This document shows, one piece after another, positions 1,478 to 60,223 of a stretch of 64,000 bases of DNA. The translations under genes were made by a program, and so were the position numbers. Source of the stretch: Heterodontus francisci (taxonomy: Eukaryota); contig NC_090399.1 of NCBI RefSeq assembly GCF_036365525.1, positions 26,608,529 through 26,672,528 of the forward strand, read 5' to 3'. Under the pieces are notes generated by a model. That model made no database searches and was not told the origin of the DNA. It worked only from the letters and a program-made list of their open reading frames with translations. Position 1 is the stretch's first letter. Each line of letters starts with the position of its first letter.

Positions 1478-1513
1478 AGGTGAAAAAAGTGGATAAAGAA
1501 CTCGAAGACACCG
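1478..1513 (+). CDS. 36-nt micro-exon (class A) of coiled-coil gene, (E)VKKVDKELEDT
   Basis: ttttcactttcag|AGGTGAAAAAAGTGGATAAAGAACTCGAAGACACCG|gtaagg; open in phase 1, TGA in phase 0. Confidence 0.8.
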
Positions 1514-2547
1514 GTAAGGGAAAATATTCAAACTGTTCCATTTTGGTCTACTAAAGCGAAGTGAAAAATTCTATTGTTGTCTGTCATATATTTTGGTGAA
1601 AGAGCAGTAAAAACTTTGGTGATTCTAACAAAAGCATAACTGGAATTTTTGATGGAAAATGTCTTAACCTTATGTAAATATTGAACCTTCATTAACTTAA
1701 TCATATAATATGGCATTTACGCTTCGAATATCGTTCTCAACACCGCACACTTTAAAGTGCTAAAAGTAAAAGAATGCGATTCCTACTGATTTGTTGGCTT
1801 AATGCCTGGAACCTGAATTGGATATGGATGGGACGGATCGCAAGCAATGTCGCATTGGTCGCCTGTTACATCCTCTCCTCGACATCCAGCTCCATTGACT
1901 AGAATACAACTGAATATTCAATGTGTGGTATAGCGGTTAGGATTTCTAACTAATGGTACTTTGCCTGCTATGTGTACCATCAATGTCCAATCTCATCCTT
2001 CTTCCCCCAAAACCCCAATATTGCGATGTCCAAATGTACAAAAAATCTTCTTCACCCATTTGCTTCCAATGCTTATTTAGACCACTGCCTATCAGAAATA
2101 ATTGAGTAGTGATCTGAAAAGCGTAACATCATTTCAAATCCTACGCTACCTATAGGCAATGCCAAGGTGAACACAAAGTGGGCACTGAAACTTCCATTAT
2201 CCACTACAATTCAATTTTATCGACTCACAGATCACTTACGTGACACTGACTGGCAGATTTTCATATTTACCAGCTAGACCTTAAGTTATACCATGTGGAG
2301 AATAGGAAGGAACATCAGACATGTACTTTAAGGAACCCTTCTAATTTCGCTCCAATTGATTTCAATGAAAAGAAAATCAGGGAATACTATGCATATTTGG
2401 ACATCGCAAACTCTAGATGTTCTTTTCCGCGCTCCAAAGTGGGCATATTTATGACCTAGGAATAAAGATGAAAGACAAACACGGATGCATTTGATAGTTG
2501 GTTTCAAAGGAAACGGTTTGTTGTTTCTCGAATTATATTGAGGAAGA

Positions 2548-2885
2548 AGAACTTACATTTTACAATCCCTTTCACGGCCCCAAGGCGATTTACAGCCAAA
2601 CACTACTGTATTTAATGCAGCCAATGCATCAATGTGCCACATTGCAATCCAATCAGCTGCATTTATTCATTTGTTGATTGAAGTATAAACGTGACCAGGC
2701 ACAACTCACCTGTTCTTCTCAGAAATAATGTTATGCGATCCAGCTGTCGGGCAGACCACCTCGGTTTCACATATCAGCTCTGAAAAAGCAGCCCTCCCTC
2801 AGTGCTAGGCTTAACTGTCACACTTGATTTTATGCTCACACCTCCAGAGTGCAGCATGGTCACACTAACGTTTGAATCAAAGATG
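2548..2885 (-). mobile_element. Decayed Deu-domain SINE (SacSINE1/AmnSINE1-like)
   Basis: Reverse complement carries remnants of the recalled DeuSINE core (ctctggag...gagcataaaatcaag...gcactgagggag...gaaaccgagg...gaagaacaggtgagtt). The family name is from memory. Confidence 0.6.
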
Positions 2886-3108
2886 TGGAAACTGGGGATT
2901 GATTATAACAATTCTTTGCACTGTTAAATTATAGCAGGTTTACTGCAAGTGACTATAAAAACTGCGTCAGTCGTGGTATTCAAAGCTCGGGACAAAAGCA
3001 GATTAAACTGGATGGAAATAGATGGTGACAACACAGCATTAACATTGGCGTTTTGCTTCCTTCAGTGCTAAACCATCCATGATTCTATAACTGTTTATTT
3101 TGTAACAG

Positions 3109-3135
3109 TGCAACTTCTGAAGCTGAAGGAATCTG
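3109..3135 (+). CDS. 27-nt micro-exon (class B), VQLLKLKES
   Basis: ctgtttattttgtaacag|TGCAACTTCTGAAGCTGAAGGAATCTG|gtaagc; open in phase 1, TGA in phase 0. Confidence 0.8.
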
Positions 3136-3274
3136 GTAAGCTCATAAATAGGCACTTCTTCATGTTACTTACATTTTTATGTTATCTACAGTATTGAAAT
3201 TTCCATTGGAGGTTTTGGAAACACTGCATGGCAACAACTAATACAATCAATATTTCAATGGTTATTATTTTTAG

Positions 3275-3301
3275 AGCTTGAACGGCATAAAAAACTCGAC
3301 G
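3275..3301 (+). CDS. 27-nt micro-exon (class C), ELERHKKLD
   Basis: ttattatttttag|AGCTTGAACGGCATAAAAAACTCGACG|gtgagt; consensus donor, 139-nt intron from the previous exon. Confidence 0.8.
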
Positions 3302-3940
3302 GTGAGTAACATTAGAGAATCGATCAGTCTACAAAACCTGCCGGATTTCTTTTCTAATTAGAAATAATCACGTGAAACTTATCGATGCTGAATGGAGCAT
3401 GAGATTTTATATTATTTTCCTGCTTCTCAAATGGGCATTTATCCGACTAGAAGGAAACACGGAGCCTATCCAGTCGATCTCAAAGCTCAGCAGCTATATT
3501 ACTGGACAGCCCATAGCCCTCAGTAACATTTTCTGCCAAATAACCATTTAGAACCCTTTGTTTTTTTTTATGTATTTATTTATGCTGGCACCAAAAAGTT
3601 GCGAATGGACCCCTTTGTCTCTTGGCTTGAAGCTTTCCACCAGATTTTGATAGTGGATCAGCAGCTTTTTCTCCACGATTTGTTTTCAACAAATCTCTTA
3701 TTATTTCTTCAGATGTTTTCGGTCATATCACGTTCAATGTTTTTCTTATCAACCCTAAAATGCTTTTGCATTAAATTTCCTGTGGTTGTAGTTGTTGTTC
3801 CAGCTGCTTACCGCAGTAGATTAACTCTTCACGATCGATATCAAAGCTTGAGAGCAGTGTGAATCATAAGCTTACTAAATTTCCGTGTTCTGTTAAAAAG
3901 GGGATAACAGTGAAGGAGGAGTACTTATTTATTTATGTAG

Positions 3941-3967
3941 CTGAACAAACAAATTATAAGAACAAAT
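3941..3967 (+). CDS. Candidate 27-nt micro-exon (D-like), AEQTNYKNK, ends in T
   Basis: ttatttatttatgtag|CTGAACAAACAAATTATAAGAACAAAT|gtaaca; weaker donor, peptide resembles ETKETYKKY at 24495. Confidence 0.45.
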
Positions 3968-4847
3968 GTAACACTATCAATATTGTACGTTGGATAAACA
4001 TGTATAAAACAATTTGCAATGAGCGAAAATTAGTGATATAATGGAGGCTTAGAATAATCCATGATACTTTATGTAGTGGCAAAAGCAGTACAAAGACTCA
4101 TAATGTGTTAGGATATCGAACTGGAACTGTAGTCTATAGACCTAAATAGGTTATATGGAGGGTTAATTAAATAATTATCAGACTACACATCGAGCACTGT
4201 GTCCCAAACATACTGGAAAAGATAATTAGCTACATTATAGAGTTGAGAGAAGAGCAACGAGAAATACCTGAAATACATGCCTATCTCGGAGCATTATTTT
4301 ATGACAACAAGCCGGCGGCACAGCCAGGAATGTTTAAATAGCGCTTTTCTGTAAATCTTTACAGTAATCTCTATGATGTGCAATTCTACCTGGAACGATT
4401 TAATATTTTATCAAATCATTAGATGTGAATGGTTTATTTGCTATTTTGCTTGTTTGTCGAAAGAAAACTAAGTTTTATAAGATGACAGTGATCTGCATTG
4501 TAATGTAAGAAATAATGAACGATCCATGCCCTGCTTTCACTGTACATTTTCTGATTGAGTATATATTGGTAGATGTAGGAATCGATTATAGACTAAGGAA
4601 AGGTGGTTAACTGTAATTAAGGAAGTGCATTTCACTCTTACTGCTGCGAATTCAGAAAGCATAGAGTGTTACAAACCATAATGTGACAATTTTTGATTCC
4701 GTATGTACATTCAGAAAATAATGGACACATGCAAAACGTATAGCAAAACAATGTAAAAATATGGATGTTAACGGCAAAACAAGAGTAACGGTATCACACA
4801 TAAGGCTCGGATTACACGTTGATGTTTTTTTTTCTTTAAACATTTAG

Positions 4848-4874
4848 AGGAAATTATACTTGAAACGAAGACTG
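4848..4874 (+). CDS. 27-nt micro-exon (class F), EEIILETKT
   Basis: T-rich tract ...ctttaaacatttag|AGGAAATTATACTTGAAACGAAGACTG|gtaaac; same gtaaacca donor context as the exon at 48850. Confidence 0.7.
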
Positions 4875-6263
4875 GTAAACCACTTCCTAATACCTGTATT
4901 ACGTAAACGTTGGTAAAGACGAAGTATAAAGAAAAAATGGGGTGGTGATATAACGGCCAATCCTACATTTAAACACTTCATCACAGGTTACATTTACATA
5001 GCCAATAAACAGACAACTACTTGAGATGAAATGTATCTTTCCACAAAAAGATGGGATTTAATTTTGACAACTAGATGGTTTCTATTTAGAAGATCCTTTC
5101 AGCTTCTTTGATCACGTGCTTTGCTATCATCTTCCCATTACAACATCCAACTCTTGCTTCGATAAGATGAACTCATCATCAACTGGTTTCCACGCTTGAT
5201 CATCCTCTGTGCAAAGAAGTATTTGTGTCCGAAATCTATTGTTCATAATCTTGACCAGGGTCCCACTGTATGGATTATGGAGACGTTTTGTTTCAAGTTC
5301 ATTTTCTCCACGCTGTTAAATACATTATAGGCACAAAAACTTAAATTCAGGAAGATACATCTTAAAATCCCTCCAGTTATGCCACTATTAAATTGCTGTG
5401 GTACATAAATTCGAAAATTCCAACACAAAGAATGTTATTAACTGCAGCACTGATTTGACGATGTAGACAAAGAAATGCTTTGAAGACCATGAAGATTAAA
5501 AATCATAACTTTGACTGCGATGGAAATAAAACCAAGAAAGATGTAATTGGGCTTTCCTCGTACTATCATCCATTTTATACTATCACACAAATTCAAGATT
5601 TCCCCTTCACTGAAATTAACAAAAAGAAAAAAAAAGATTCAGAAATGCAATGACCATTGGATCATTTTACCTCATGACGATAGTGTAGAATGCGAAATAT
5701 CGGATTGACTGCCTGGTATCTATGTTTCGCGAATTTCTTTCCTCTAAAGTCAACTGAAATAAAAATCGGGCGAGGTGCACGAAGGCGATTGATGAAATCG
5801 CCTGTTTTATCGTTTACACTGATTTTTAAAGAAATTAAAAGCACAGAATGTTGGCACATGTCTTCTACAGTGTGGGAACAAAACCTGATTACAATGAGTT
5901 CCAAGGGTAACTTTACTTATCTTCGGCCACTTTAATGCAAATTCTGGGAGCCAATGGCAGCTTCATTGATCGTTTTGGAAAGGGTGAAAACATGATTTCT
6001 TTACTGCAGTTTTTGAGCACAGCTGCTCGAAAGTAGAACATTGGGAGCAGAGGAAGATAAATATCTGTTTAAAAAGGTGACAGTTAATCTGTAATGTGTT
6101 TATTGTATCACGTCAGAGCAATGGTACCAGCAGAGTATGCTTCCTCCTGCATGGGTGACAAGAACTGTCATTGGAAACTAAGCTGAATGGAATAACATTC
6201 ATTTAAACTCATAAGTTACAAACTTCAAAAAGTAAATAATCAAAATCTCATGCTTTCCTTCAG

Positions 6264-6299
6264 AACGAGATAAATTGACAAGCATTCAGGAAGATGTTG
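6264..6299 (+). CDS. 36-nt micro-exon (class A), ERDKLTSIQEDV
   Basis: tgctttccttcag|AACGAGATAAATTGACAAGCATTCAGGAAGATGTTG|gtaagc; open in phase 1, TGA in phase 0. Confidence 0.8.
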
Positions 6300-6503
6300 G
6301 TAAGCAGAGAACATTTCATTGCGTGTCATTTATTTGAACTACTTAAAGTAACCGTTTTGAACTTTAACTTATGAGAAAGGGATTGATACTTGGCTGCGGT
6401 ACCAATAGGTGGCAGCAGTTTAACATCTGTTTATACATTCCACCAGGTTCTCCACTACATTGACTTCACTTTATTTTCTTAATTATGTTTTTTTTTGCAA
6501 CAG

Positions 6504-6530
6504 CGCGACTGTTAACTATAAAAAATGAAG
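6504..6530 (+). CDS. 27-nt micro-exon (class B), ARLLTIKNE
   Basis: T-tract gcaacag|CGCGACTGTTAACTATAAAAAATGAAG|gtaaag; open in phase 1, two TAA in phase 0. The aacag acceptor is shared with 3109 and 60197. Confidence 0.75.
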
Positions 6531-7669
6531 GTAAAGAATCTCTTTGGGTTTAATTGTGCTTTCATGTTATAGATTATTATATATTAAAATTATAGATATA
6601 AAAAGGGTACAATTTGTCTTGGTGGTAGCGCAAAATGGAAGATAACCAATCGGCCTACAACCAAAATGACTTTTTGTTTCAATTGAAGCTGCAGAAAGGA
6701 GTTTAGTTTCTGGTGTAAGCCGGGCTGTGAATCAGCTATCACTCCCTTTGCATTACTGTACAAGACCAATCTAACCTGCAAAACATCCAACAGATACAAA
6801 TTATTGGTCCACTGATGCTCTTGCTGCCTACTAATCAACTGTGGTCCTGTGATGGAAAGTTCTTCTTAAGTATTTCCTAATACATCGGCATTATCAGTCC
6901 CATTTAATCCCAGTTAAACCATAAATTCGTAATATCTGAACGACATCATCCATGGAATCCAAGCATTGTTTTCTCTTTAAGAGTTTTCTTCCTTTATAAA
7001 AGGCCTTGTTGTTGCTAGGTCTACGTGGACGTGAATGAACCGTGCTGGATAAAGTGGTGCTTCGGCCACTTCTCCCAATGAACCATGATTTTTAATTAGC
7101 TTTGTTTCTGATGCTCAGTGGATGAACAACAATAAGTGTGGAACAAATAAAAAACATCAAAGTCATCAGATAGCATCTTCAACCGTCCAGATTGATGTCC
7201 AGCTCTGAAGACGTATACACTCCTCTTACATATTTGGAAAATCAATTATTCGATTAATATTTCGAAAACTTCATACCTTCTCGTTCTGAGCAGGTCAATC
7301 CAATGTAATTTTTTTAGCTATGGATTGGCCGAAAATTGCTCATTTTTCTAGAGCTCTGTATCACATATTCACAATCCTCTGTATAAACCCGAATTTTCTA
7401 ATCTCGCTGTAAATTTGGTCATTGCTGCCTTTCCTGTTGGGTAAGTATATTGGAATGGGAGCTTAAAATGCCAATCATTAACCATTAAGCCATTTCACGG
7501 CCTCACGTCTCAGTCGGGTGATTACTGGTCTTTGGACACAGTGTATAACAAATCGTGTGCTGAGCATCCTCTTGTACATTGCTCCCAGTTTTTATTCCCA
7601 TGGATAAATAGGTCCGATGTGAAATAGGTGCCGGTCCGATTTTCCCATTTCACACTCTTGACAAACGTT

Positions 7670-8362
7670 GACAAGAACATGAATTTATTGAACACCCTTG
7701 ATGTCGTAAAACATCTGATGGCATTTCTTAGAAGTGATCAGATGAATAAAAGCGTTGATCGACGAGGTAGGTTTCAATGGGCGTCTTAAAGGGGCAAAGA
7801 CAGGTCGAGAGGCGGAGAGATTTAGGGAGGCAATTCCAGAGGGTAGCAACTCGACAGCGGAAGGAACGGCCTCAAAAGTTGAAGCAATTAATATTAGGGA
7901 TGCTCAAGACGCCAAAAATAGAGGAGCACAAATATTTCAGAGGGTTGTAGGGCTGGAACTAGTTTAAAGTGATAGGCATGTGCCTGGGAATGGGGGGATT
8001 TGTAAACAAGAATTGTTGAATCTGGAGTCAGTACATGCCAGCAAGCGAGGAATGAACGGTGCAATTCAAGAGAGAGGCAGAAGTTTCAGATGAGCTTAAG
8101 TTAATGGAGGATGGAAGATGGGAGTCCGGCCAGAAGTTCTTTCAAACTTCCGAATAGCTAAATAGAGAAGTAACAAAGGCATGGATGGATGTTTCCGGGG
8201 TGGATGAGATGGGGCAATGGGTTGAATCTTGTGATGTTATGGAGTAGGAAGTAGACAGTAGATAGTCTTAGTGATGAGTCAGATATGCAGGCAGAAGCAC
8301 ATCGTGAGGTCAAATAGGATATCAGAGTTGCAAACAATCTTGTTTAGTATCGGATAGTTGCC
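7670..8362 (-). mobile_element. Decayed L2-type LINE 3' fragment
   Basis: gagaggcggagagatttagggaggcaattccagag...gaaggaacggcc resembles the antisense 3' region of L2 elements; a similar short piece is at ~55800-55990. Family assignment is from recalled similarity. Confidence 0.55.
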
Positions 8363-9174
8363 AGTGTTAAGACCGAGGTGGGAGGAGTGTACTTTTTATC
8401 TAGTTCCACTTCTCCACAGGTTACTCTATATTTTTATATATTTTTTTACCCAGTTGCTAATACGATTAATCATAGAGGCTATTTTTATTCCAGAATGCAC
8501 AAACAAAAAATCCATCGACTAGGTTTTGTAAACAAAAACAATATTATTAGTTTATTATAAAACAAGTATTAACCAGTAACGAAGCAAAGCACCAACATAC
8601 AGATTGAAATATGAAAGTTTTCTTTTTCTCTTTAGTCACTCAAACACACACGCACACGCACACATGCAGTGGTTAACTGAAAAAATAGAGATTTTCTCTT
8701 TACAGCTCTATTACAAAAAAAAACAGGCAAACAAGAATACTTTGGCCAAATACTTGCTAATTCTTGTTGAAAAGAGAGAAGCTATAGAAATATATCAGGT
8801 GTCCTTTTATTGGTTTGGCGTCCCAAATACGTGTAGACGGATGTCACTGGGAATATCCAAGTCGCAGGTTAACTTTTTCAACCAGCTGGCAGAGATTGGT
8901 TTTAAGCAGAGCAAGTTCTCCTGCGATTTTAGCTGAATAATCTGTGTTACTCCTCTCTCAAAATTATACAAAGCATCAAGCCGAATTAATTCCAAAAGAA
9001 AATAAGAAAAGCTTTTCTTTCCCAACAAATTATTGGTATTTGCTGTGTTCATCACTGAAGGGACAGTTTAATGCTAAAATAGCAGAACTCCTGAATATCA
9101 ATCTTTGAAGGACCTTGTTCCCCCATCGGACCACTGTGAAGACTTCAAGCGACCTTTGACTGTTTTTACATTAG

Positions 9175-9195
9175 AAGATTCCATTCGTCAGAAAT
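9175..9195 (+). CDS. Candidate 21-nt (one heptad) micro-exon, EDSIRQK, ends in T
   Basis: gactgtttttacattag|AAGATTCCATTCGTCAGAAAT|gtaact; same AAAT|gtaac end as 3941-3967. Confidence 0.45.
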
Positions 9196-9339
9196 GTAAC
9201 TTGCAAACAGATTTAAGTATATGTATGCAAATGTGGGAGCTATATTTTTTAAAATAAGAAGTTTTAAGGTCTTTAGACGTAGGTTTATCTCAGCTGCCTT
9301 TCAGATTTTAGGTTTTGTAATGAATAATTAATTTGTTGC

Positions 9340-10920
9340 TGTCTAAATATACCTGGTTTGGTCTGCTTCATTCGCGGGATACTAGAGTTGGCTGCTTTTT
9401 TCAATTTGGCTGCTTTTCTGATTCTCTGTAGAAGCACTTAATATTGGTGTTTAGATTTCTTGCCAGCTTTCTCTTGTACACTCTTTTCTCCCTCCTTATT
9501 AATCTTTTCGTCATGCGTTTTTTAATATATATATATTTTCTGCCCAATCTTCTGAACTGCCACCCATATTTGAGAAATTATATGCTTTTTCTTTACGTTT
9601 AAATCTATCTTCAACACTTTTAGTTTACCACGGATGGTGGATCCTCGCCTTAGAATTTTTCTTCCTCGTTGGAATATATCTATTCTGTATATTCTGAAAT
9701 ATCCTTTTAAATGTCTGCCATCTCTTTGACCAATCCCTTAACCTACTTTGCCAGTTCAATTTCGCTAGCCCTGCTTTCATTGCCCACATAAGTGCCCTTA
9801 TTTAAGTTTAAAATACTAGTCTTAGATCCACTCTTCTCTCCCTCAAACTCAATGTAATATTTACTCATATTATGATCGCTGCTGTCTAGGGCGCCTTCAC
9901 TATGAGGACATTAATTAATCCTATCTCGTTGCACAATAGCTGCTCAAGTATAGCCGGTTCACCGGTTGGGTCCAGAAAGTGCTGTTCTAAGAAACTATCC
10001 CTAAAATATTCCATTAATTCTTCATCGAGGCTACCTTTTCCCATCTGATTTTTCAAATCTATATGTAGATTAAATCTCCCATGATTATCGCCATACCTTT
10101 CTGACAAGCACCCATTACTTCTTCCTTGATATTTCTTCTTGCTGTGTGGTGACTGTTAGGGGCCCAATACACCACTCCCACAAGAGACTTCTTGACTTTA
10201 TCATTTCTCATCTCGACCCAGACCGTTTCTATATCCTGGTTTCCTGAACTTAGGTCATCCTTCTATTGTGACAATTCCATCATTAGCAGAGTCACCCAAC
10301 CACATTTTCCTAGCTTCATTTCCTTCCTAAATGTCATGTACCTTTCAATATTCAGTTCCCAATCTGTGCCACCCTGCAGCCATGTCTTTTGGTTATCAGA
10401 TCATACTTATTTATTTCTATTTGCATTATCAGTTCATTGGTCTTGATTTCAATGCGACCTGCATTCAGATAAAGAGCCTTTAGTTAAGTCATTTTACTAT
10501 TTTTGTAACGTCTTGTCTTAGATTTGTAATAATTGTCCCTTCCTGTCATGGTCTGTTTCTCTTCTCTCATATTAATACTTTCCTCTCTTGCCACTATTTG
10601 AATTACCACAAGTTCCCTAATTTGATCCATTGCCTCCTCTATTTATTTTGAAACCCTCTCAACCTCCCTAGTTATGTGACTCGCTCGAACACAGGTCCCA
10701 GCACCGTTCAGGTGTAGACCCCATTTTCCCAAATACTGGTGCCACTGCCCAACAACCCAGAACCCATTTCTACCATACCGGTCTTTGAGCCACTCATTCA
10801 TTTCACATATCGTATTTGCTTTGCTCCAATTTTCACGTGGCTCAGTTAACAATCCAGAGATTATTACTTTTGAGGTTTTGCTTCTGAATTTGGTGCCTAG
10901 CTCGTCGTACTGACAGATCC
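9340..10920 (-). mobile_element. CR1 LINE 5' part: ORF1 SGNH-esterase and ORF2 endonuclease remnants
   Basis: ORF 10643-10945 (SKVIISGLLTEPR...MNEWLK...GLHLNGAGT) is CR1 ORF1 esterase-like; ORF 9886-10107 (FRDSFLEQHFLDPTGEPAILEQLLCNE) is the APE endonuclease end. Confidence 0.85.
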
Positions 10921-11340
10921 TTGCGCCTGAAAGATAGGAGGGCACAAAGACACCAAAGGTAGAGATACAGGAGTGGGAACAGAAGACATTTCAGGTGTTT
11001 CTTTGGCGATGACTGGATAGATAGGAATGAAACCAGGTGATTGCAGACTAACCCAGTGGAATGACGGAGATCAGCCTTTGGAATAGGGTGTTCTGGTTAA
11101 CCATGTTAAAAACTGCAGACAGACCGAGAAGGCCGAGTATGAATTGTTGGCCCTGGCTCCAGGCTCCGACCATGACTCCTGAGACATTGTCAACTACCGT
11201 TTCGGTGTCATGGATTGGTAGAAAATGATTTGAATGATTCAGGCATGCAGATCTGTGAAAGATGCACACGGATGTTGGAGATACTGCACATTGAAGGAAC
11301 TTGGAGATTCACAGTTCCTTGTTAGTAGTTGAATTTCTAA
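10921..11340 (-). mobile_element. L2-type LINE reverse transcriptase fragment
   Basis: ORF 11048-11269 HDTET...LGLLGLSAVFNMVNQNTLFQRL resembles the L2 RT motif HSTET...LLDLSAAFDTVDH.ILL.RL. Confidence 0.65.
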
Positions 11341-11354
11341 GGCCTAATTACCAG

Positions 11355-13180
11355 GGACTGTTAAAATACTACGGGGAGAGGCCCGCCTCGAACCGCGACG
11401 TGGAGACGGGCCGGTCGCACTTTGCTGGCGGCGGGACCTCGGTGCACCCCCCACCTCCACCACACCGACCCCTCCCCCCCAACCACCCCGCCGCACGGCG
11501 GCGGCAACACAATTAGCATATGGTAATGTTTACTTACCAATGCTGATTGTGCAGTCTCTCCACCGACACTGCCGGACTTTTCGTTGAACGGGCGGCCGTC
11601 ATGTGCCGTCCCTATCACGGTCTGAAAAGCCCGCGGATCCTCACTCTGCATTACAGAAGGGAGGATGGAGGAGGGATACACAGGGGTCTAACTCTACACT
11701 CTGGAAGGGAGAGGGGACGGGGGTACACAGGGGTTCTACTCTGCATTATACAAGGGAGGAGGGAGGGATTAACAGGGGTCTCAGTCCGCATTCTTAAAAG
11801 GAGGAGGGAGGGGCAATACGCAGGTGTCAAACTATGCATTCTTGAAGGGAAGGGGGATATGCAGGGCTCCAACTTTTCATTCTGGAAGGCAGGCGCGAGG
11901 GGCGTATACAGGTGTCATACTCTGCATTCTGAAAGGGAGGGGGTCTGAGATTACTGGAGGGATAACTGTGCTGGCATGAAGGAAGGCACTGTATACCATC
12001 CCTCCATTAACAGTGTATGCTCTGTGTTTGTGAGGGGGCAATGGCACACTAGGCACCCTGTGTGTGGGGTGGGTGCCAGAAATGGCAGGAATATTAAGGT
12101 TTTATGGATGGTGGGGGCTATCGATTCAGCTGATAAGATCTTGATGTGGTCATACTGTGCCACTCTGAGTGTTGGCCAAGATGGGTAATGCCATGGCACG
12201 CCTCATAATTGATCCAGGAAAGCAGCTGATGTACCTGTCAACATCAATCCATGCCTTGTTAGGAACCTTTGAATAAATGCAGGGTTCAATTTATTTATCA
12301 CACGGAAGCATATATGGCTCATCCTCCACTGTGTGATCCTCTGCACGTGAGGATCTATATAGCCTGAGGCAATACCAACAAGCATGTGTGATCCACATAC
12401 AGGGTCCCCCGGTAATGAACAGCAGCCCCCAAGGGGAGCCCGCAATTATGGTTGCTGTGCAACTACAGGCCCACATGAAATGCCATCGGATGCCAGAGCA
12501 CCAGTGTCAGAGGAGATTGCACATATAGAGAGGGTGGCGACACGTCTCTGTGCCTTGCTCAAGGAGATGGGTGGACATCCCATGCCTTTGTTCCTCATAG
12601 TGGCAGTTGTTCTCAAGGGTGATGTCCTGTACTATGGTCCGAAAAGGCCAGCTCCTTTCTTTGCTGCTCTGCACAACTACGCACCCAGAGGGGCTAGGAC
12701 TGGCATGATGAGGAGCGACATCAACAGGATTCCTCCTCAGACTATGAGGACGCTGAAGACCTACAATACAAAAGATGCATGGGAGGGCAGATGGCACCCA
12801 GGCTCCGCACATAGGGCAAGAAGTGAGTTAGGGACATAGGGAAGTGGCTTAACAGACACAGGCTGTCTGCTCCATAGGAACTGACATAAGCTCTGCAAAC
12901 CACACATCACCTTCGCGGTTCTCAAGCCTGACGCATCTGCAGACTTTTAGCCGCCTACCATAGACCTGTGTGGGGTCACACAGTAAGCAGTGCATCGCTG
13001 CATCGGGGGGACACCAACTGCCATGACACCTGGGTCTTATGCCAGTCCCAGATGCCACGGCTGATCACTGAGCTGGCTCAGATGGAGGGTTTGCATCTTG
13101 GAGATAAGGGCTATCCTTTGCAGACGTGGCTCCCGACACCGGTAAGAGAGTCCATCACTGCTGCAGAGGAGCAGTCGTAC
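11355..13180 (+). mobile_element. PIF/Harbinger DNA transposon remnant (HARBI1-like DDE transposase, disrupted)
   Basis: ORF 12968+: CHDTWVLCQSQMP...LGDKGYPLQTWLPTPVRESITAAEEQ matches the Harbinger GS.HD...LGD.GY...W.MTP motifs; upstream RLCALLKEMGGHPMP resembles the N-terminal region. GC-rich 5' end at ~11360-11640. Confidence 0.8.
11643..11945. repeat. Degenerate minisatellite, ~45-bp unit, ~7 copies
   Basis: Repeated ctctgcattct-gaagggagg...ggg-atacacaggggtc-a units. Confidence 0.75.
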
Positions 13181-13910: not shown

Positions 13911-13924
13911 TTATTAGATTATTG

Positions 13925-48342: not shown

Positions 48343-48344
48343 CT

Positions 48345-48765: not shown

Positions 48766-48849
48766 AATGAAGTTAACAATCACACAATCATATACGAAGC
48801 AGGCATTGCAATATTCTCTGTAAATTCATTTGTACTTTGTGCTTTGCAG

Positions 48850-48876
48850 AGAAACAACTGAAAGAAAAAGAAGCAG
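48850..48876 (+). CDS. 27-nt micro-exon (class F), EKQLKEKEA
   Basis: tactttgtgctttgcag|AGAAACAACTGAAAGAAAAAGAAGCAG|gtaaac; open in phase 1, TGA in phase 0. Confidence 0.8.
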
Positions 48877-50310: not shown

Positions 50311-50869
50311 ATTTGGAAGAGATATTTGACGAACCTCTCCTTTTGACATTAACGACCATTTAAACATAATTTAGCCTCTTAATTTAGTGGGAAGTATTTC
50401 TACAGCCAGCTTGGTTCCAATTGAGCTCATATGAAAATTCTAAGAGCATTGATTTCACCGTTACCAATCCAACGGAAACAGCGTAAGCTCGAGAGCAACG
50501 ATCGGTTTATAGCCTGCCCGAGTTTGCTCTCTGGTGACCTCAATAAGTGCAATCAAATGGAATGTAAAATGGACACTTAATTCTGTGAGGACCTTGGGTT
50601 GGGATTGAGGGGGGGGGGGGCGAACAACGAGTATGACAGTTCCACTCAAGCGAACGCCCAGCAGGCTATTGGCTACAGAAGATGAGATTCAGCTGCCTCA
50701 ATAGATCTGGTGACACCCTGTACTCTGCTGCCATGAGGTGTTGTGTATTCTGATGGTCTGCTGTGCTCTATAAAATCTAGTGCTGCAGAGAGGGGAGGCT
50801 TACATAACAATGAGATGCCTGAGTGACACTCATCCGCCAATACTGTGGAGAGATAGGGGCAAGCAGCAA

Positions 50870-51110
50870 TGGATAGCAACATAGCAGCTGGAGTATGCCA
50901 TCCAGCCCTTCGATCCAGCTCCGCCATTCAATACGATCATGACTGATCATCCACTTGAATTCCTTTTTTCCCACACTATCCTCATATCCATTTATGTCAT
51001 CGTTATTTAGAAATCTTTCATATTCTGCTTTAAGCCTACTCAGTGACTGAGCTTCCACAGCTCTCTGGGGTAGAGGAATCCAAAGATTCCCAACCCTCCG
51101 AGTAACCCTT
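50870..51110 (-). mobile_element. CR1 3' end
   Basis: RRVGNLWIPLPQRAVEAQSLS; same 3' UTR as 22003-22230. Confidence 0.75.
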
Positions 51111-51499
51111 TGGGTGGTGAAAATCCTGTGCAGGCGATCAGACAGATAGAGCAATCCACAAAAGAGGCAAAAGACAACCTCATAATTATCCATTTGCAGC
51201 CACCCCGATGTCCATTGACAGAGAATCAAATAAAGGCTCAGCTTAATGTATGAACTCTACCGACCCCCTTCCATTTGTGTTCCCTGATTTGTACTGGCTG
51301 CAAGGCACATTATTGCCCAATGGGAGACCATATGTTAATGAGAGTCTGTATTACACTGACATGTTAATGAGGGCTGTGGTCACAATGACTTTCTTTAAGG
51401 GGGAAGGGGTAGTCAGCTGCTCACAATTAACGTATAATGGCACATGGCTTTCAGGTTATCGTGGCTAATGATTTGGAAAAATTAACTTTTAATTAACCA

Positions 51500-53620
51500 C
51501 TACAGCACATATTAGGTATATCCATGAGACCAGTAGTGTGGCTAGGTGGTCTGCTTAATACGTTTGCGAGTGCTCCTATGTGGTGTGATCCCTCCAACAG
51601 AAGTTGGGATGGAGGCAGGCTTTTGATCAGGATGCTCCTTGGCTTGTGATGACTTTGGCACGCTTCCTCTGGCTTTCTGAGGCTTGGATGGTCCTGGATG
51701 CCTGAGGGTGTCCTGGACTGATGCAGGAATCCCCTCAGGCATCACGACTGCTGAAGCTGGGCATTCCCTGTGCTGTCAACACCAGAAACTCATCTTCATT
51801 CTGTGGCCCAGCATGTTCCTGGTCACCCACAATCCTCCGACTATCACTGGCCTCAGCTGTCTCAGCTTCAACCAGTTGTTCGAGCGCATGTGCGGTTCTC
51901 TCACCAGCCTGTGAGCCTGATTCTACAGCTGAAAGCAATCCCACCGAAATGAAATTTTATGCGCGGGTGGAAGGTGCAGTAGAATCATGGAACAATGTAT
52001 TTGTGACTTCTGATCCTGCTCAGAGGTGGAATTTTGTCCGCTTTCCACTGGCGTCTACTGTGCATGCTGACCTCTGTGGGGTGGGATAAGAAGATCTACT
52101 AATACCAAATATGTGTAATGTCAGTCTCCAGAGTTGAACTGTATGTCGGTGTAAGTCAATCGTCATTTTCTTGTATTGACAGTCCAGTCTCACCATCCGC
52201 TATGGAGTCGGTTCCATGGGTCACTGCCAGTTCGAGTCTTTTTAACTGTGGAGATATATTTAATGTTGGAGATTTCTCCACCAGTCCATGATGTATCTTT
52301 GTGTTGTGGGTTGTCTTGCCCTGCAACTGGAAAGAGGGAAATACTTCTGCTACTGGCAGCCCGTCGTCCCTCACTGGACTTTCCCATTCAGCTCATCCTT
52401 CCATCAGCTCTCAGGGGAGTTGCTGTGGATCGAGCTGTGAAAGAAGGTGTCCTGCTGCCTAAATGTAGCAGCGCATTGGTCAGGAGAGGTGATGCGTAAC
52501 CCATTGTGCCAGTGCTTATGTGGGGCATCACTGTCCATTGTCTCCCTTCCTACTGCATAGCCTCATTAAAACTCTCAAAAGGAGAGAGTGATGTAGCTCT
52601 CACCTTGGCAGAACGAAAATAGGTTGGTAATTCACTTCCTGAAATGGATTGAGGGAATTTGGGTGGTGTGGAGCATCCTCACGGCTGCTGCAACCTCTGC
52701 AATCACCATCCAGGCTTGCTTGGTCAGCTGGAAGGACCTCTTTTTTTACTTCTTCGAGGGATGCGTATATCGCCGACTAGACCAGCATTTATTGCCCATC
52801 CCGACTGACACTTGGGAAGGTGATGGTGAGCTGCATTCTTGAACCGCTGCAGTCCTTGAGCTGGAGGTACACCTGCAGTGCTGTCAGGAAGGGAGTTCTC
52901 GGATTTTGACACAGAGGCCGTGAAGAAAAAATAATGAGTTCTATGTCAGAATGATGTGCGGCTTGGAGGGGAACTTGCAGGTGCTGGTGTTCCCATGCAT
53001 CTGCTTCCCTTGTCCTTCTAGATGATAGAAGTCGCGAGTTTGGAAGATGCTTCGATGGAGTGTTGGCGAGTTCCTGCAGTGCATTTTGCAAATGGTGCAC
53101 ACTGTGCATAGGTGGTAAAGAGAGTGTATGTTGAAGGTGGCGGTGGTGCAGTAGACCTCCCATATTTCTCCTGCATCCTGGAGGAAAATATCCAGAGGTG
53201 GCATTGCTATACTGTGGGGCCCCCTGGTGTAGAAATTATTCCATAGTCAATACAGGCTCCGTTTCTCACCTGTCAGTCTGATGCAGGGATATTGAGGCAC
53301 AAATAGCTGTTAAAGGGGCCAAGGGGCAGCAAGCGGCAATTCAAGAGCTCCTGGGTCAGTGATGGCACCTGAAGGGGTTCTATAACACCAATGACATCTG
53401 GCATAGCCCTGGGGCAGCAAGCAGCATTGTGGAAGGACACCGTCTCAAAAGTCATGAGGGAATGCAGAGCTCAAAGACCTTCAAATATGGCGCCAGAATT
53501 GATCCGGCGTCATGAGACGACGTGATGATCGTCTCGTCTCCCGCCCCCGCGGCGTGATTGGGCAGGCATCGCCTCCAGCATGTAAAATGGCCGCATTCCA
53601 TGTGAAGCTGGGACCGGCGG
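51500..53620 (-). mobile_element. Harbinger-type element remnant carrying a decayed Myb/SANT-like ORF2
   Basis: Minus strand 52600-52716 translates to AWMVIAEVAAAV...HFRK*ITNLFRSAK, similar to the Myb/SANT-like W.EVA..V...QCRKK.NDL.RSA motif. GC-rich end at ~53490-53620. Confidence 0.5.
52741..53153 (-). mobile_element. 5'-truncated second-family CR1-like LINE with 6-bp TSD
   Basis: T-run at 52741 followed by the antisense 3' UTR; gacctc duplicated at 52735-52740 and 53154-53159. Confidence 0.85.
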
Positions 53621-54087
53621 CAGGATCAAAACATTTAGCACTATGTAACATCAAGTGTTGTTCATGAGTATATATCGCAGCAAAATTTTCATAAACTTGT
53701 GTTTCTTTAACTTCTTTAATTTCGTGTTTGAATTCATTATTAATTTAAATACAGGATTGCAAAGTTAGTCCATAGAAAGAAAAATATACAGTTGTTTGTT
53801 CAATCCCTGATAGCTTGGAATCCTTATATAAATTTCTGAGACATTGGAAGATATCTCAAATTCTGACCCCCGCCCCCACCCCCACACCCTCCCCCACCCC
53901 CCACACCCCCCAAAAAAGTACTAGAATGAAGGATACCTACAATGACCCAGCACTGGAAGATTTTTTTTATCATTTCTATATTGTTCCGATTTTTTACGAT
54001 TAATAATTTTTTGCTAGTTTTTACTAATTTGTACAATTCATTCCTCAAAATTCTATGTGGAAAATAAACAGCAAAGTGCATGAAAAT

Positions 54088-54298
54088 ACGAACAGAAAGA
54101 TCCGGAAATACTCAGCAGCTCTTGCATCATTTGTGGAGACAGAATCAGAGTTAACGTTTCATGTCTGCGAATTGATGGTCACAGACCTGAAAGGTTAACT
54201 CTGTTTCTCTCGCCATGGATGCTGCCAGGCCTGCTGAGTATTTAGAGCACTTTCTGTTCCCATTTCAGAATTCCAGCATCCCGTAGTATTTTGCTGTT
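54088..54298. mobile_element. Older palindromic Penelope-like insertion
   Basis: aaatactcagcag...cagagttaacgtttc / gaaaggttaactctg...ctgctgagtattt inverted arms plus atttcagaattccagcatc...gtattttgct tail, as at 36435-36652. Confidence 0.75.
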
Positions 54299-55182
54299 AT
54301 AGTGCATCAAAAATGCTGCCGGAATAGGAATCACGTGTTTTTGCTCTTTTCATGATTTGGGATGAATGTTCGTTTCTCCCACCTGGAGGAAAAAAAGGTC
54401 GTAATAGAACGGTCGTTCGTTTTAGACACCACCTGATTTTAATTTCCAATAATGTAACAAAATGAAAAGTTACTCCTTTTGATACGTGTGAAACTGCACT
54501 TGTGTATGATGCAAAACAAATTGATTCAGATCCAGCGCTTGTTGTATACTCGACAGGGTATTCAGCTCCATTTAGTGCAATAGTATTGAACGTGGGCCAT
54601 ACCATGTAATGGTCGACAAAGCGATTCTGTCTGTTTAATATACCATCCATTTGCAATATCGCCCCTACTGTTCTGACTTTGCCATAATCTATTGAAAGTT
54701 GCTAGGAGAGGAGCAGAATATCATCTTCGATCTATCTTCCTTCTCAAAACGTATGACACTGTGTTCAATGGTAAATGAGATTTAGTGGAATGTTAAACGT
54801 ACAATCAATTCGCTATTGCCCGATTTATACTATAACCCAAGATCTCTTTCATCCCATTACTACATTTTTCAGGTAACAATGCACCTAGGTAAGGCATTTC
54901 GATGTAGTTGCATAACGTAGGAGATGTGAGACAGGAGGGCGTCATGATCAATCAATTGAATGCTTCAGGGATTAAACAGGTCCTAACAAATAATGTACTG
55001 CAGTCACAGTCGCAGAGGCTGTACATGCTGACTTCCAGTAAGGCAGGCTTGCCCCTTTGAGGACGGAAGCAACTGTCTTGAACTGTTTCAAACAGGAAAT
55101 TAGAGAAGTAGGCACATTGTAGCAAGGACATCACACTTTCACGAATGAATTATAATTACCTCATTTGTGTTTCACCTTTCAG

Positions 55183-55218
55183 AAATGGAAAAACTGAGAA
55201 AAGCTGTGCACGATATGG
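55183..55218 (+). CDS. 36-nt micro-exon (class A), EMEKLRKAVHDM
   Basis: ttgtgtttcacctttcag|AAATGGAAAAACTGAGAAAAGCTGTGCACGATATGG|gtaaga; open in phase 1, TGA in phase 0. The acceptor resembles that of 1478. Confidence 0.82.
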
Positions 55219-56009
55219 GTAAGAATGACAGCATTCAATGGCACGACGTTCAAATTAGTTTCTAAGATGCGCTTAGCCAAGTTCGCTACAGAAATGTAAT
55301 CGCACTTCTTAGTTTTTACTTCCGTCATATCAAAATATATTGAGGGTTAATGTTAATCATTGTCATTTAGCGATATTGATTCACCACCTATTAAACATCA
55401 CGCCCTCCATTCCGTTCGGTTGACGTCTATAGACCTCAGAATTCACTTGCTCCATGACACGAATTTTATTACTTCACCAAAACTTACAATTATCTCTTTG
55501 AGTTTCCTTTATTCTTTGTTAAAGCCATTTCATAATGTGAAATGGCCTAATCTGTATTTTTATCAGGATTGAAATATTTACAGAGGACATTTCAGCAAAA
55601 TCCTTTACGTAGTTTGGTCATGCATCACTTGATTCACAAAATCTTCCACTACAAAAGAGGGTTCATTTCTAACAATCCACGACCTGCAAGTTCGAAGCAG
55701 TTTAAGTTGATTCATAAGGACCATTTTGGAACAAAATGAGATGTTGTCAAGGTGTTGAAACCAGAATGGTTAGATGTTGATAGCGTTTTGCGACTGTGGA
55801 GAACTCTTTATCAGAAAAGAGGTCCATAAGCAGACACATAATTGAAGGTGTAGGCCAGCTAAAAATGAACTTGATAAAATTAGGAAGAGAAGTGGCAACG
55901 GAAATGGATTTGGGGAGAGACTTCCGGATGGCTAGACAATACCAGCTGAATGAGAAGCAATCTGCTACAAAGCGAGGAAGAGAGAGAAAACATGGCTTAT
56001 TTTATTGTT

Positions 56010-58800
56010 AGCTCTCCCTCACAGGCGAAGATGACTGTCTTTGTTGAATCTGAAGAAGACTAGTGAAGCCGATTTTGTATCTACAGATTTTATGGCCCGT
56101 AGGACATGTCTTGCCATGTGGGATGTCTGGTCGTGTATTATTAGTTTGAGTCATGTCATTTTCTTTCTGCCCATCTCGGTTTTCCTCGGATTTTGTTTCA
56201 TTGGAAATCAGAACGCTGTGATCCTACCCATAGACTCTGCCTCCATCTGATTCGGTCAGGTCAATTGTCTCCCAGGGAGTTGATGTCAATGTTGCATTTC
56301 CTCAAGATTGCTTTCAGCACATCCTTGAAGTGCTTCCTTTCGCCTCCTCTGGTATGTCTTCCCTAACTGAGCTGGGAGAAGAAGACCTGCTTTTGGAGCC
56401 TGATGTCTGATATCCGAAATATATGGCCAATCCAACGAAGCTGACGGCGGATAATCATAGCCTCGCTGCTTTTGGGGTCTGCTTGAGAGAGGACACTGAT
56501 GTTGGTGCGTCTGTCCTTGCACTTGATATATCGGATCTTCCATTGGCTGCGTTGAGGAAATGACTGCAGTGCTTTGATATTCCTTCTATATGTTGTTCAT
56601 GTTTCAATCGAGTACTGTAAGGTAGAGATCGCAACCATCTCGCAGCCCATGGGTTTGGTTTCAGTTTTGATGTCGCAATCTTCAAACATTCGCTTCCTCA
56701 GGTGGCTAAAGGCTGGACGAACAGATTTCAGGCGATCTTGGATTTCATCACAGCATTCCTGAGATCATTCAGGAATTCTTCTTCAGTCCAGATCTGGAGG
56801 ATGAGGAGGTGGAGCTGTAATGTTAGCTCCTCTCCTCTGTACTTAAAGCTTTCAGCAAGGATTCGATAACCTCCTACCATTTTGCTGTTCTTCATCTGGG
56901 TGATTGTTTTCATCACCTCCAAAGGCGTTGGTGGAGTTCCGAGCTTGTATTTAACTGGGTGTTGTGGGATGGAGTTGAAAGCAGTCCCATTAACAATAAC
57001 AAAAGATAAGCAAAATTCTCCCTCTAACAGGCGTTGACAGCTTCCCTTTCCTTGATCGGATCTCCCCCATCCTTAAGCCTCAAACGAAATGTTCCTTGAG
57101 TGTTTGGGCCATAAATGTCTTCGGAGCAATGAAGAAGCCACGATATCATTCATGTTATAGAGATGCTGAATTACCTTTCCCTTGTCTACCCACCACCTGT
57201 TCTTCAAATTCCTGGCATTCCTTTGTTCCTCTGCCTTTGTCTGTTGATGAGCCAATTTCTCTTGCTTTGAGTTTTGGTCATTCTGCCAGCCACAGAAAGT
57301 CTTGCACTGGTGATCAATCAGTTCTTTGATATTATGATTACTTTCATCAAACCAGGCCAGAAGTTTCCTGACAGAAAATTTAAGTGCATCTTTGCAAGCA
57401 TTGCTGATATTGAGCTTAAAGACGTCCCAAGCGCTGAGAACGCTCTTTTATGCTCTTGATTGACGTTTGAAAAGTTTTTACTAAGGCATTGCTGGAATCA
57501 GATCCGTCAAAGCTTTCATGTTGATCTTTCGTGGACATCTCTTCGGTTGGATCCGTCATTTGGAAGCCAGTTTGAAGGACTTGATAGAACGAATAAGTTG
57601 GTGATCAGTCCAGAAGTTATCAGCTCCTGTCATTCCTCTGGTGGTGTGAACATCTTTGCGATTCTGGCCATGACTAATGACATAATTGATCAGTGTTTGG
57701 AACGTTGGTGTTGGCATGACGTTTCTTGCTTGTTCATCTGGTGGAACAGGTATTGGTGGTTATAAGCCTATGTTCTGCACATCTGGTGAAGAGAACAATG
57801 CTGTTGGAGTTGACATTTCAAATTTGTTCAATGCCAATGGTTCTATTCCAGAGATTGGAAACTCTTCCAACTCTGGCATTGAAGTCTTCGAGAAGAATAA
57901 GTCTCTCCTCCTTCGAAACCCGACATGGCTTGATGCTTGATCAAGTTTGGCATGAAATCTTCCGTGGTTTCATCATTGGTGTCTCGAGTTGAAGCATATG
58001 CATTGATCACAGTGGCGCATTGGCTCTTGCCAGTTTGAGACAAAGAGCCATGAAGCGCCCAGTTCTTCCAAGAGGGAACTCAGGAACATGATTGACAAGT
58101 TCATTCTTGATGGCAAATCCAGCTCCATGAATTCTGCGTTCTTCTTCTGATTTTCTCTTCTCGAAGAAAGTAAAAGCACCGTGGTGTTACTTGAGCTGCC
58201 CCACTCCAGCTTTCCAGGTCTCACTCAGAGCAGTGATGACAATGTCATATCACTGGTGTTCTCAGGCAACAATTGCAGTATGACGCTTTGGACTTTCACA
58301 CGTGCTTGCGTCCATTAGGGTCCTGACGTTCCAAGTCCAAAACTTTACTACTTGTGTACTGTGTGTGGTTCTGCAGCATAAGGTGATCACTATTGTTGCA
58401 GCTATCCAGTCGGGAAAAATGAGGCAGACCATGTTTAGTGCACCTTTTCTAGCACCCTCCCCAATGAGGGGTCAGTGGAGTTGATTCTAAAGAGGGTGGC
58501 TCAGCTGCAACTACAGCCACAGAAAGGCACTCCTGCCTCATTCAAGTGGTAGATGGCCATCTTGTAACTGCTGCCTCCATGTTAGATAATGACAAGAAGC
58601 TCCCATCACCTGTTGCTGGTCGCCGAAGGACTTGAAGTATGTACTCGGAAAGGAAGACACTTGTGAATGACATCTTTTAACATGAAGAAACAGTTGCACA
58701 GCAGCTTCCACACGTATATTGGGAGAATAACACTTCTATCCAATGTCTAGGAAACCACGACAATTGGGGGCTTTTGGTCTGCTGCAACCTTCGTCTGCCA
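56010..58800 (-). mobile_element. Older RTE-clade LINE (endonuclease and partial RT, internally deleted)
   Basis: ATVINAYAST..TNDETTEDF; EVMKTITQMKNSK...AESFKY.GEELT..LH.LI..IW; RNLKNRWW. Confidence 0.8.
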
Positions 58801-59504
58801 GAACAGTTGCTGAGATATTTATGGCACATCTTCCACTACCTGTTCTACCGTTTGCCAGAGCCCCATCTGCTGAGCATTTCTAGGATTCCAACAGGCCTTC
58901 ACAGTAACCAAAGCGGCCAAAGAAATTAAAAGTCGCATCGTACTTCACCCTGTTTTGATCAACCTTTGCTTACTCATTGTCCAGGTTCTGCAGCGAGGAC
59001 GAAGGGGTAGACTTTGGAAGCCATGGGTTAGTCTGGGAAGAGTGTCTGCTAGGGGTTAGTATAGGTAATTAAGCTAAGGTTGGACAACAGCGCAGGGGGA
59101 AATGAAATGAGTCAATGAACTTGACAGGTTCTTTCACACAAGTTGATCTGGGAATTAATAGGACTTGGGAAATGCGTACAGGGTTGCTTTATTTTATTCC
59201 CAACGAGCTTTCCTAGATTTTCATGGTCATCTCTCTGGGCATACTTAGTTACATAGCATAAAAGAGATCTGTTCTTTTTCTGAAGGACATTAGTGAAATA
59301 GTTAGATTTTTTTAAATTTTACGAAAAGATTTCTTATTTTTTTATTGAACACAATTGTGCAAAATCTGGATTGTTAGGCCATTACTATGAGCATGATGTC
59401 ACTGTACCTACTTTCATTAATGGGATTGCAAATGTGAGACAACATGGATATAGCTATAACTTGCTGAGAAAGTAGTACCTTTGTATGAGCTCATAGGACT
59501 TGAG

Positions 59505-60153
59505 ATTAAAGCAAGAATTCAGGTGCAGCAAGTAAGTAAGCAGGCGAATGGTATGTTGGCCTTCATCGCAACAGGATTTGAGTACAGGTGCAGGGATGTC
59601 TTACTGTGGTTTTACAGGGCCTTGATGAGACCACATCTGGAGTATTGTGTTTTCCTTATTTGAGGAAGGATGTTCTTGCCATGGAGGCATTGCAAAGAAG
59701 ATTTAGTAGACTGATTCTTGGGATGGCGGGATTGACTATGAGGAGAGATTGGGTCGAATTGGCCTATATTCACTAGAATTTAGAAAAATAAGAGGGGGTC
59801 TCAGAGAAACCTATAAAATTCTAACAGAACTAGACAGGCTCAAGGCAGGGAGGATATTCCCGTTGGCTGGGAAGTCCAGGGGTCACAGTCTCAGGATACG
59901 GGCTATTCCGTTTATAACCGAGATGAGGAGAAATTTCTTCACTCAGAGGGAGGTGAATCTCTGGAATTCTCTACCGCAGGAGGCAGTGGAGGCCAAATCA
60001 TTAAATAGATTCACGAAGGAGATAGATGTATTTCTTAATGCCAAAGGGATCAAGGGATATGGGGTAACAGTGGGAAAAGGGTGCTGAATTAGACGACCAG
60101 CCTAGATCTTCTCTGAATGGCGTACTCCTGCTCCTATTTCCTATGTTTCTATG
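59505..60153 (+). mobile_element. 5'-truncated CR1 3' end
   Basis: LMRPHLEYCV, GLYSLEFRKIRG, FFTQREVNLWNSLP; tail ctcctgctcctatttcctatgtttctatg. Confidence 0.9.
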
Positions 60154-60196
60154 AGACGTTCCAGCTAGGTTTTACTGTTTTTATTTTTCATAACAG

Positions 60197-60223
60197 AAAC
60201 GAAACTACTCCAGAAAGAGTCAG
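60197..60223 (+). CDS. 27-nt micro-exon (class B), ETKLLQKES
   Basis: actgtttttatttttcataacag|AAACGAAACTACTCCAGAAAGAGTCAG|gtaaac; acceptor and KES end match 3109. Confidence 0.8.

Follow-up and report, generated by a model that had tools for sequence, protein, structure and literature searches.

A predicted shark gene of symmetric micro-exons probably encodes a cytosolic coiled-coil rod and carries a broken B30.2 exon

INTRODUCTION

Chicken BG genes, in the available excerpts of two reports, carry 13 to 36 exons of 21 (sometimes 24) nucleotides (nt) that encode a coiled-coil tail (PMC4046983, PMC5938342); the same excerpts state that one BG form regulates actin-myosin in gut epithelium (PMC4046983) and that splicing shortens the tails (PMC5938342). 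Butyrophilins are defined, in the available part of a further source, by IgV, IgC, a transmembrane segment, heptads and B30.2 (PMC12841164). Here we describe an array of micro-exons that crosses a 64,000-nt stretch of Heterodontus francisci DNA (the window; positions 26,608,529-26,672,528 of contig C29 in a 6.0-Gb assembly), which an original prediction, made from the letters of the window, had taken for the coiled-coil tail of a butyrophilin- or BG-like receptor, or of another coiled-coil protein. The array extends far beyond the window, and we consider it probable that the gene to which it belongs, gene A, is a live gene for a "headless" cytosolic rod, with its B30.2 broken and its rod exons intact, and not a butyrophilin receptor.

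RESULTS

Thirteen in-phase micro-exons in the window

The original prediction had placed 13 coding segments of 27 or 36 nt on the plus strand, and all 13 were recovered at the claimed positions and lengths, with the same splice borders, final G and joined peptide. Every segment is preceded by AG, followed by GT and ends in G (13/13), and together they measure 387 nt. Phase 1, the proposed frame, is open throughout (0/13 segments with a stop), while each of the other two frames is interrupted in 8 of the 13. With a generic splice model, 5 of the 11 plus-strand matches in the window were exactly 27 nt long, compared with 0 of 8 on the minus strand. When a second model was trained on 108 exons from outside the window, its plus-strand matches of 27 or 36 nt were exactly the 13, with none on the minus strand; no exon of either length had been missed in the window. 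The model gave 0.43 matches per other length, which corresponds to a Poisson P of about 1e-11 for the 13. Because the training exons had been chosen with a first model built on the 13 themselves, this test is strong and not fully independent. In the following list, as in the whole text, numbers below or above 1..64000 are window coordinates extended upstream or downstream, and gene B is the paralog described below.

1..64000, plus strand: whole window, inside gene A (about C29:25,946,600-26,734,900)
1478..1513, plus strand: 36-nt phase-1 micro-exon (12-residue module); a counterpart in paralog B was searched for and not found
3109..3135, plus strand: 27-nt micro-exon; homologous, flanks included, to a gene B exon (score 179.5, shuffled maximum 68.5)
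3275..3301, plus strand: 27-nt micro-exon; homologous, flanks included, to a gene B exon (score 190, shuffled maximum 69.5)
4848..4874, plus strand: 27-nt micro-exon; gene B partner 85% identical
6264..6299, plus strand: 36-nt micro-exon; gene B partner 86% identical
6504..6530, plus strand: 27-nt micro-exon; gene B partner 78% identical
24495..24521, plus strand: 27-nt micro-exon; duplicate of the 44826 exon, flanking intron included (score 226, shuffled maximum 75)
37319..37345, plus strand: 27-nt micro-exon; duplicate of the 48850 exon, flanking intron included (score 182.5, shuffled maximum 65)
39755..39790, plus strand: 36-nt micro-exon; likely third part of a duplicated 27-27-36 block
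44826..44852, plus strand: 27-nt micro-exon; duplicate of 24495
48850..48876, plus strand: 27-nt micro-exon; duplicate of 37319
55183..55218, plus strand: 36-nt micro-exon
60197..60223, plus strand: 27-nt micro-exon, the last of the window; the next array exon lies at 76,793

Because the introns flanking the pairs 24495/44826 and 37319/48850 still match far above shuffles, and gene B has no counterparts of these duplicates, the array evidently grew by tandem duplication of exon blocks, one such duplication being recorded inside the window. The flanks of the 39755 and 55183 exons scored 64 against each other, which is not above chance (shuffled maximum 79).

Repeat sequence makes up 45% of the window and lies in introns, with the exons outside it. 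By eye, from translations of open reading frames, reverse-transcriptase retroelement fragments were seen in the introns at 13481-14783, 17697-20484, 26407-27168, 34148-35869, 40801-42815 and 59710-60087; the long open reading frames in or near the window, considered as possible genes, were set aside as retroelement pieces or noise, again by eye.

The array resolves into two collinear genes

Over the 1.454 Mb examined around the window, the array occupies the plus strand only and resolves into two collinear genes, gene A, which holds the window, and gene B. The array is thereby roughly ten times larger than the window shows. The micro-exons of gene A run from -650,551 to +123,042, from about 650 kb upstream to about 60 kb downstream of the window; with a head exon starting at -654,581 (C29:25,953,947) and a last exon starting at +125,843, the predicted gene spans about 790 kb and has the window in its last third. 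In gene B, the head exon lies at +168,707 and the last one at C29:27,322,313. The region holds one 4.7-kb assembly gap, in gene B at 192,980-197,646, where exons could be missing.

Our catalogue of candidate exons comprises 138 for gene A and 130 for gene B at a score of at least 15, and 127 and 118 at a score of at least 17; a few low-scoring entries, outside the window, are false. As controls, 30 minus-strand matches were counted in the 1.454 Mb and none in the 42 kb separating A from B. Most candidates of gene A (117 of 138) are 27 nt (78) or 36 nt (39) long, another 6 measure 21 nt, and the median intron is 3.4 kb. Genes A and B are collinear over 86 exon pairs, chosen for more than 57% identity, with a ratio of nonsynonymous to synonymous substitution rates (dN/dS) of 0.48 (bootstrap 0.37-0.61), and in both genes phase-1 exons of 21 and 27 nt directly precede the B30.2 exon. 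We consider it likely that all 13 segments are coding exons belonging to a single predicted shark gene, gene A.

Two modules of gene B, one of 36 nt and one of 27 nt, adjoin without an intron at 605,248-605,310 (63 nt open), where gene A has two exons; intron loss with retention of the internal donor is possible. Candidate exons of 66 and 30 nt near the ends of A and B were dropped because they lie in low-copy repeats; for a 69-nt candidate, no homolog was found. Over the last 10 kb of gene A, three sequencing runs from the same sample, guessed to be RNA, covered repeats and neither exon.

The modules encode a heptad coiled coil

The proposal that a hidden gene of symmetric micro-exons encodes a heptad coiled coil was borne out by the joined modules, in which hydrophobic residues recur with a period of 3.47-3.51, or about 3.5 (power 0.54-0.69, compared with 0.22-0.24 in shuffles). 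Glu, Lys and Leu account for about 45% of the residues. Hydrophobic residues occupy positions 2, 5 and 9 of the 12-residue module in 75-84% of its copies, and position 4 of the 9-residue module in 60%; 12 + 9 residues equal three exact heptads, and runs such as 9-9-12 would shift the heptad register. A coiled coil rises 0.15 nm per residue, so the predicted rod of gene A, with about 1,250-1,350 residues, would be about 190 nm long.

The coding sequence starts with an acidic head, and no receptor parts were found

Upstream of the head exon, a 370-nt block with a conserved donor is shared by gene A, gene B and a further paralog, gene C, at about 70% identity; its distance to the head exon is about 7 kb in A and 1.4 kb in B, and it likely represents a non-coding promoter plus first exon. 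When the block is joined to the head exon, in-frame stops precede the ATG in A and B, and in A a stop stands directly before it. The head itself is acidic, 39 residues long, and has three tyrosines common to the paralogs A, B and C. One of them stands in a Tyr-x-Asn context, which we take to be a typical SH2-binding motif, in A, B and the catshark models, and not in C or the ray protein. The head exon of gene B is 132 nt long, symmetric and open from its acceptor, and the head of C is likewise open from the acceptor.

Local profiles for IgV and IgC gave no match below an E value of 0.32 in the 1.454 Mb. The IgC profile had no control; the IgV profile was weak and recovered two control V exons, located in other parts of C29, with E values of 0.0007 and 0.0024 (19-21 bits). 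The best RING/B-box match in the same region had an E value of 0.24, whereas a control exon was found at E 4e-12 and 4.5e-9. No membrane-spanning segment was detected, the highest 19-residue hydropathy being 0.37 in A, 0.56 in B and at most 1.34 in six database models; a type II membrane protein, a design found in P0118 and P0152, was ruled out by this lack of a hydrophobic segment. P0118 and P0152 are unnamed proteins that combine an N-terminal membrane segment with a repeated coiled neck and PRY-SPRY, a design unlike that of the micro-exon family. The four head-bearing NCBI shark models have no Ig part, and the three that were scanned gave no Pfam match. Elsewhere on the contig, C29:15,379,200-15,389,199 holds a V-set-like exon and, 7 kb away and on the same strand, a RING/B-box exon, probably as two neighbouring genes.

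B30.2 is intact in gene B and broken in gene A

The last exon of gene B encodes an intact 172-residue B30.2 (Pfam SPRY, E 1.2e-9), whose nearest solved structure is BTN3A1 (E 5.9e-23); its single-sequence fold was uninformative, with a predicted local distance difference test (pLDDT) score of 36. The family B30.2 gives no match to Pfam PRY. In gene A the homologous exon (66% DNA identity) carries several frameshifting indels and an internal stop, and as it stands would encode about 80 residues before a stop. Over the first 67 B30.2 residues, which are in frame, identities to seven relatives number 12-25 for A and 25-45 for B, and against the outgroup gene D the same stretch scores 17/59 for A and 35/66 for B. 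In a quick tree, the end branch of A's B30.2 is 1.83 and that of B's 0.14, a difference partly inflated by out-of-frame residues in A.

The coil behaves differently, for its identity to the ray protein is 51.5% in A and 53.5% in B over 53 exon pairs. When the 34 unpaired B exons were sought in A with a cut-off of 62%, 4 were intact, 2 had lost the acceptor AG, 0 had a stop and the rest were unmatched; no convincing acceptor loss was seen in gene B. Because the B30.2 decayed strongly and the coil shows no excess divergence, the rod likely stayed under selection long after the B30.2 of gene A died.

Relatives in other cartilaginous fishes

The nearest named relatives are shark proteins with 64-71% identity. 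A search with the head exon returned four catshark proteins, and a search with the B30.2 returned models from bamboo shark, basking shark, whale shark, electric ray and chimaera. Family fragments, as split and partial models, are listed here:

XP_072329363.1, XP_038671248.1, XP_038671249.1, XP_043533988.1, XP_069775393.1, XP_042191566.1: catsharks, bamboo shark, electric ray and chimaera

Their names (CENP-E-like, myosin-like, A33-like, TRIM39-like, butyrophilin-like) come from chance similarity. The database comparison that the original prediction had suggested found models of catshark, bamboo shark, electric ray and chimaera that join the same modules in order. Catshark XP_072329363.1 consists of the head and B-type modules in genomic order; on it, 53 exons of B chain with 44 abutting joins (9.4 in shuffled order) and 42 exons of A with 30 (10.6 in shuffled order). 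Catshark XP_038671249.1 (945 residues) runs on into a SPRY domain, and five window exons align to it ungapped with 18/48 identical residues, their genomic order ranking 1/120, narrowly (89 vs 88).

For the gene of the electric ray, isoform names reach X20. Compared with X1, 15 of these predicted isoforms show 11 distinct internal deletions, all of 8, 9, 12 or 18 residues, 7 of the 11 lying at borders of chained gene A exons; models from bamboo shark, catshark and chimaera have isoform differences of 6, 7 and 9 residues. The ray gene was considered as an ortholog of A, with which it shares an A-only block, and this was dropped, as its distances to the two genes A and B are equal.

In a tree of 23 rows (including 7 BTN and 9 TRIM rows, and with no true root), the family B30.2 forms one group with 100/100 support, while the BTN and TRIM rows are not resolved from each other; a quick 69-row tree again gave one group (support 100), far from butyrophilin and TRIM. 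These predicted proteins delineate a micro-exon coil-B30.2 family in Chondrichthyes with a conserved head, collinear 27/36-nt modules and a family-type B30.2. ESM Atlas leads include long SPRY-bearing chordate clusters of 1277 amino acids (aa) at 0.92 and 1579 aa at 0.89. No description of the family was found in the literature searched, whose coverage leaves out most subscription journals, and the available excerpts of PMC7677710 and PMC8455134 (shark genomes) and PMC11788884 (domain shuffling) contain nothing on it.

A gene cluster on a chromosome with MHC class I

Head exons were located at 25.16, 25.95 and 26.78 Mb on C29, and a further family B30.2 at 24.24 Mb, gene D being counted among the intact members. 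Between 24.25 and 25.87 Mb, which was covered by samples only, and beyond, 10-kb samples contained array exons at 24.0, 24.35, 24.5, 24.65, 25.08, 25.16 and 25.65 Mb (weak at 25.4) and none at 23.8, 24.8, 24.95, 27.34 and 27.45 Mb. Probably, five tandem genes are spread over 3.3 Mb. An intact B30.2 was seen in two genes of the cluster, B and D. Gene C ends in copies of a 21-nt exon, two of them broken, at about -715,800 to -708,000; it has no recognisable last exon, and no B30.2 or remnant was found in the 79 kb before the start of A. Among the best 150 of 202 candidates, the only family B30.2 at 24.25-27.32 Mb besides B's end is A's remnant. It seems that B30.2 was lost in at least one and probably several copies.

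Most of the PRY matches listed lie on C29, none of them at 24-28 Mb (best 150 of 270), and a genome-wide V-set search listed none at 24-28 Mb (best 150 of 2384). [quoted passage not shown] On a different contig, C39, four more family B30.2 exons lie at 20.87, 22.16, 25.64 and 28.02 Mb, each with a nearby 27-nt exon, and group with chimaera and catshark models.

DISCUSSION

According to the above-described analysis, gene A is probably live and would make a cytosolic rod, and several points weigh against that interpretation. Its splicing is predicted from sequence, no RNA seen from this shark covers one of its exons, and no polyadenylation hexamer lies within 2 kb after A's stop or 1.2 kb after B's. 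Isoforms at NCBI rest on RNA-seq; the database models compared here are predictions whose own RNA support is not visible, none of those found in the searches runs full-length from head to B30.2, and the catshark models are 57% identical to A and 67% to B, as expected if they are B orthologs. With controls at such low bit scores, the local IgV profile is a weak instrument. In the gene A exons at -119,048 and -59,147 the acceptor AG is gone, and the partner exons in gene B are intact; as both gene A exons are symmetric, this loss would merely shorten the rod. For about 25 B exons no partner could be recognised in A, which leaves room for decayed copies. Since the catalogue penalises stops, their absence is partly built in, and a splice-only census counted sites with stops at 6/107 in A (5 of them, by eye, copies of one repeat) and 2/93 in B. 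Taken together with the broken B30.2 exon, the two lost acceptors could mean that gene A is a recently dead pseudogene, with real exons and no useful protein now; neighbour C, also without B30.2 and with broken terminal 21-nt exons, fits this, and simulated neutral drift of 2% still leaves zero stops with a probability of 0.08. We nevertheless regard a recent death as unlikely, because the same 2% predicts about 10 lost splice sites where 2 were seen (at 5% drift, stops are expected in 5.8 exons and lost sites in 23), because B30.2 decay far beyond coil decay needs a long time with the coil selected, and because the upstream block and head exon are conserved.

The remaining explanations concern what the rod is attached to. 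Genes without B30.2 might be spliced in frame onto downstream micro-exons and share the B30.2 of gene B, with alternative promoters and varied rod lengths, since the exons of the tandem genes are all in phase 1 on one strand, the head exon of B could be entered from its acceptor, C lacks a recognisable last exon and A's remnant is the only other family B30.2 listed in the interval. We hold this to be a long shot: neither a model nor a read links two of the genes, each of them retains an upstream block and a head of its own, a leader of 14 nt can be expected to be open by chance and that of A contains a stop, the pre-mRNAs would exceed 1.3 Mb, and the listing itself covers the best 150 of 202 candidates. 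Equally improbable is its fullest form, a protocadherin-like locus in which several promoters and heads feed in-phase micro-exons over megabases into one shared intact B30.2 exon; if true, it would provide a library of molecular rulers ranging in length from about 200 to well over 400 nm, with the same binding domain on each. Even less likely is the receptor tail of the original prediction, with Ig and transmembrane exons further upstream. What stood of the butyrophilin/BG likeness is the linkage of phase-1 heptad exons of 21 and 27 nt to a B30.2 exon directly behind them, as in butyrophilins, on a chromosome with MHC class I; a downstream exon of this kind, as had been anticipated, was indeed located at 125,843, but it is broken in gene A. 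BTN3A1 is the nearest structure to B's domain, and the head exons of B and C show an open frame starting at the acceptor. The receptor part did not stand. The upstream IgV, IgC and transmembrane exons were matched nowhere in the 1.454 Mb, a stop directly precedes A's ATG before the acidic head and another lies in B's upstream exon, A's end and B's head lie only about 42 kb apart with no Ig match between them, the NCBI models with the head contain neither an Ig nor a transmembrane part, no hydrophobic segment occurs, and the family B30.2 stands apart from the sampled BTN and TRIM domains. That the segments are chance splice-like matches in repeat-rich DNA is hardly credible, for although nearly half the window is repeat-like and some low-scoring catalogue entries outside it are false, the matches divide 13 to 0 by strand, share a single open frame, have paralogous exons conserved together with their flanks, and are matched in other sharks.

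We therefore return to gene A as a probable live rod gene. Translation from the head ATG would give a cytosolic protein made of a short acidic head and a coiled-coil rod. Because all exons are symmetric, with phase 1 at both ends, the gain, duplication, loss or skipping of a single exon would be frame-neutral, and rod length could be tuned in steps of 9 or 12 residues through exon skipping and duplication. The intact members, B and D, would form very long parallel dimers through their heptads, placing the B30.2 about 190 nm from the head, where it would bind targets. Gene A, as the version without B30.2, would probably pair through its coil with itself or with paralogs and act as a spacer or decoy, a role modelled by analogy on the chicken BG tail ("zipper protein") at the cytoskeleton.

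If so, a protein encoded almost wholly by about 130 micro-exons over 0.8 Mb represents an extreme gene design, in a family that chimaeras, rays and sharks all retain but whose database models are split and misnamed; such mislabelled models can raise the apparent numbers of shark butyrophilins and TRIMs. The combination of heptad exons and B30.2 seen in butyrophilin tails would exist here without the receptor part, on the shark MHC chromosome, and the B30.2 loss parallels chicken BG evolution, so that tail function could be tested in a simpler form. The array also lends itself naturally to the study of how micro-exons are spliced outside neurons and how a coiled coil grows exon by exon.

Compared with known systems, the locus is closest in layout to chicken BG, with which it shares a tandem MHC-linked multigene cluster, a coiled coil from many tiny symmetric exons, exon copy number that varies and alternative splicing that changes length; BG, like gene A, has no B30.2. 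Unlike BG, with its signal peptide, IgV and transmembrane exon, gene A has no Ig or membrane part, and it has about 120-135 exons, mostly of 27 or 36 nt, next to sister genes that keep B30.2. As in butyrophilins (BTN3A1, BTN1A1, ERMAP), heptad exons are followed by a B30.2 exon, and BTN3A1 is the best PDB match of B's domain; unlike them, the family has no IgV, IgC or transmembrane segment, a rod more than 10 times longer and a B30.2 in a separate clade. BTN3A2 is a B30.2-less butyrophilin partner. The PRY-SPRY TRIM proteins (TRIM21, TRIM39, TRIM58) likewise join a cytosolic coiled coil to a C-terminal B30.2, many of them are encoded on the same chromosome, and several NCBI models of the micro-exon family carry TRIM names; unlike TRIM, the family has no RING or B-box, and the TRIM coil measures about 140 residues (Pfam TRIM_CC) and is encoded in large exons. 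Gene A resembles a BG or butyrophilin tail but is likely a member of neither family, and what is new here is the start exon, the lost B30.2 and the layout of the cluster.

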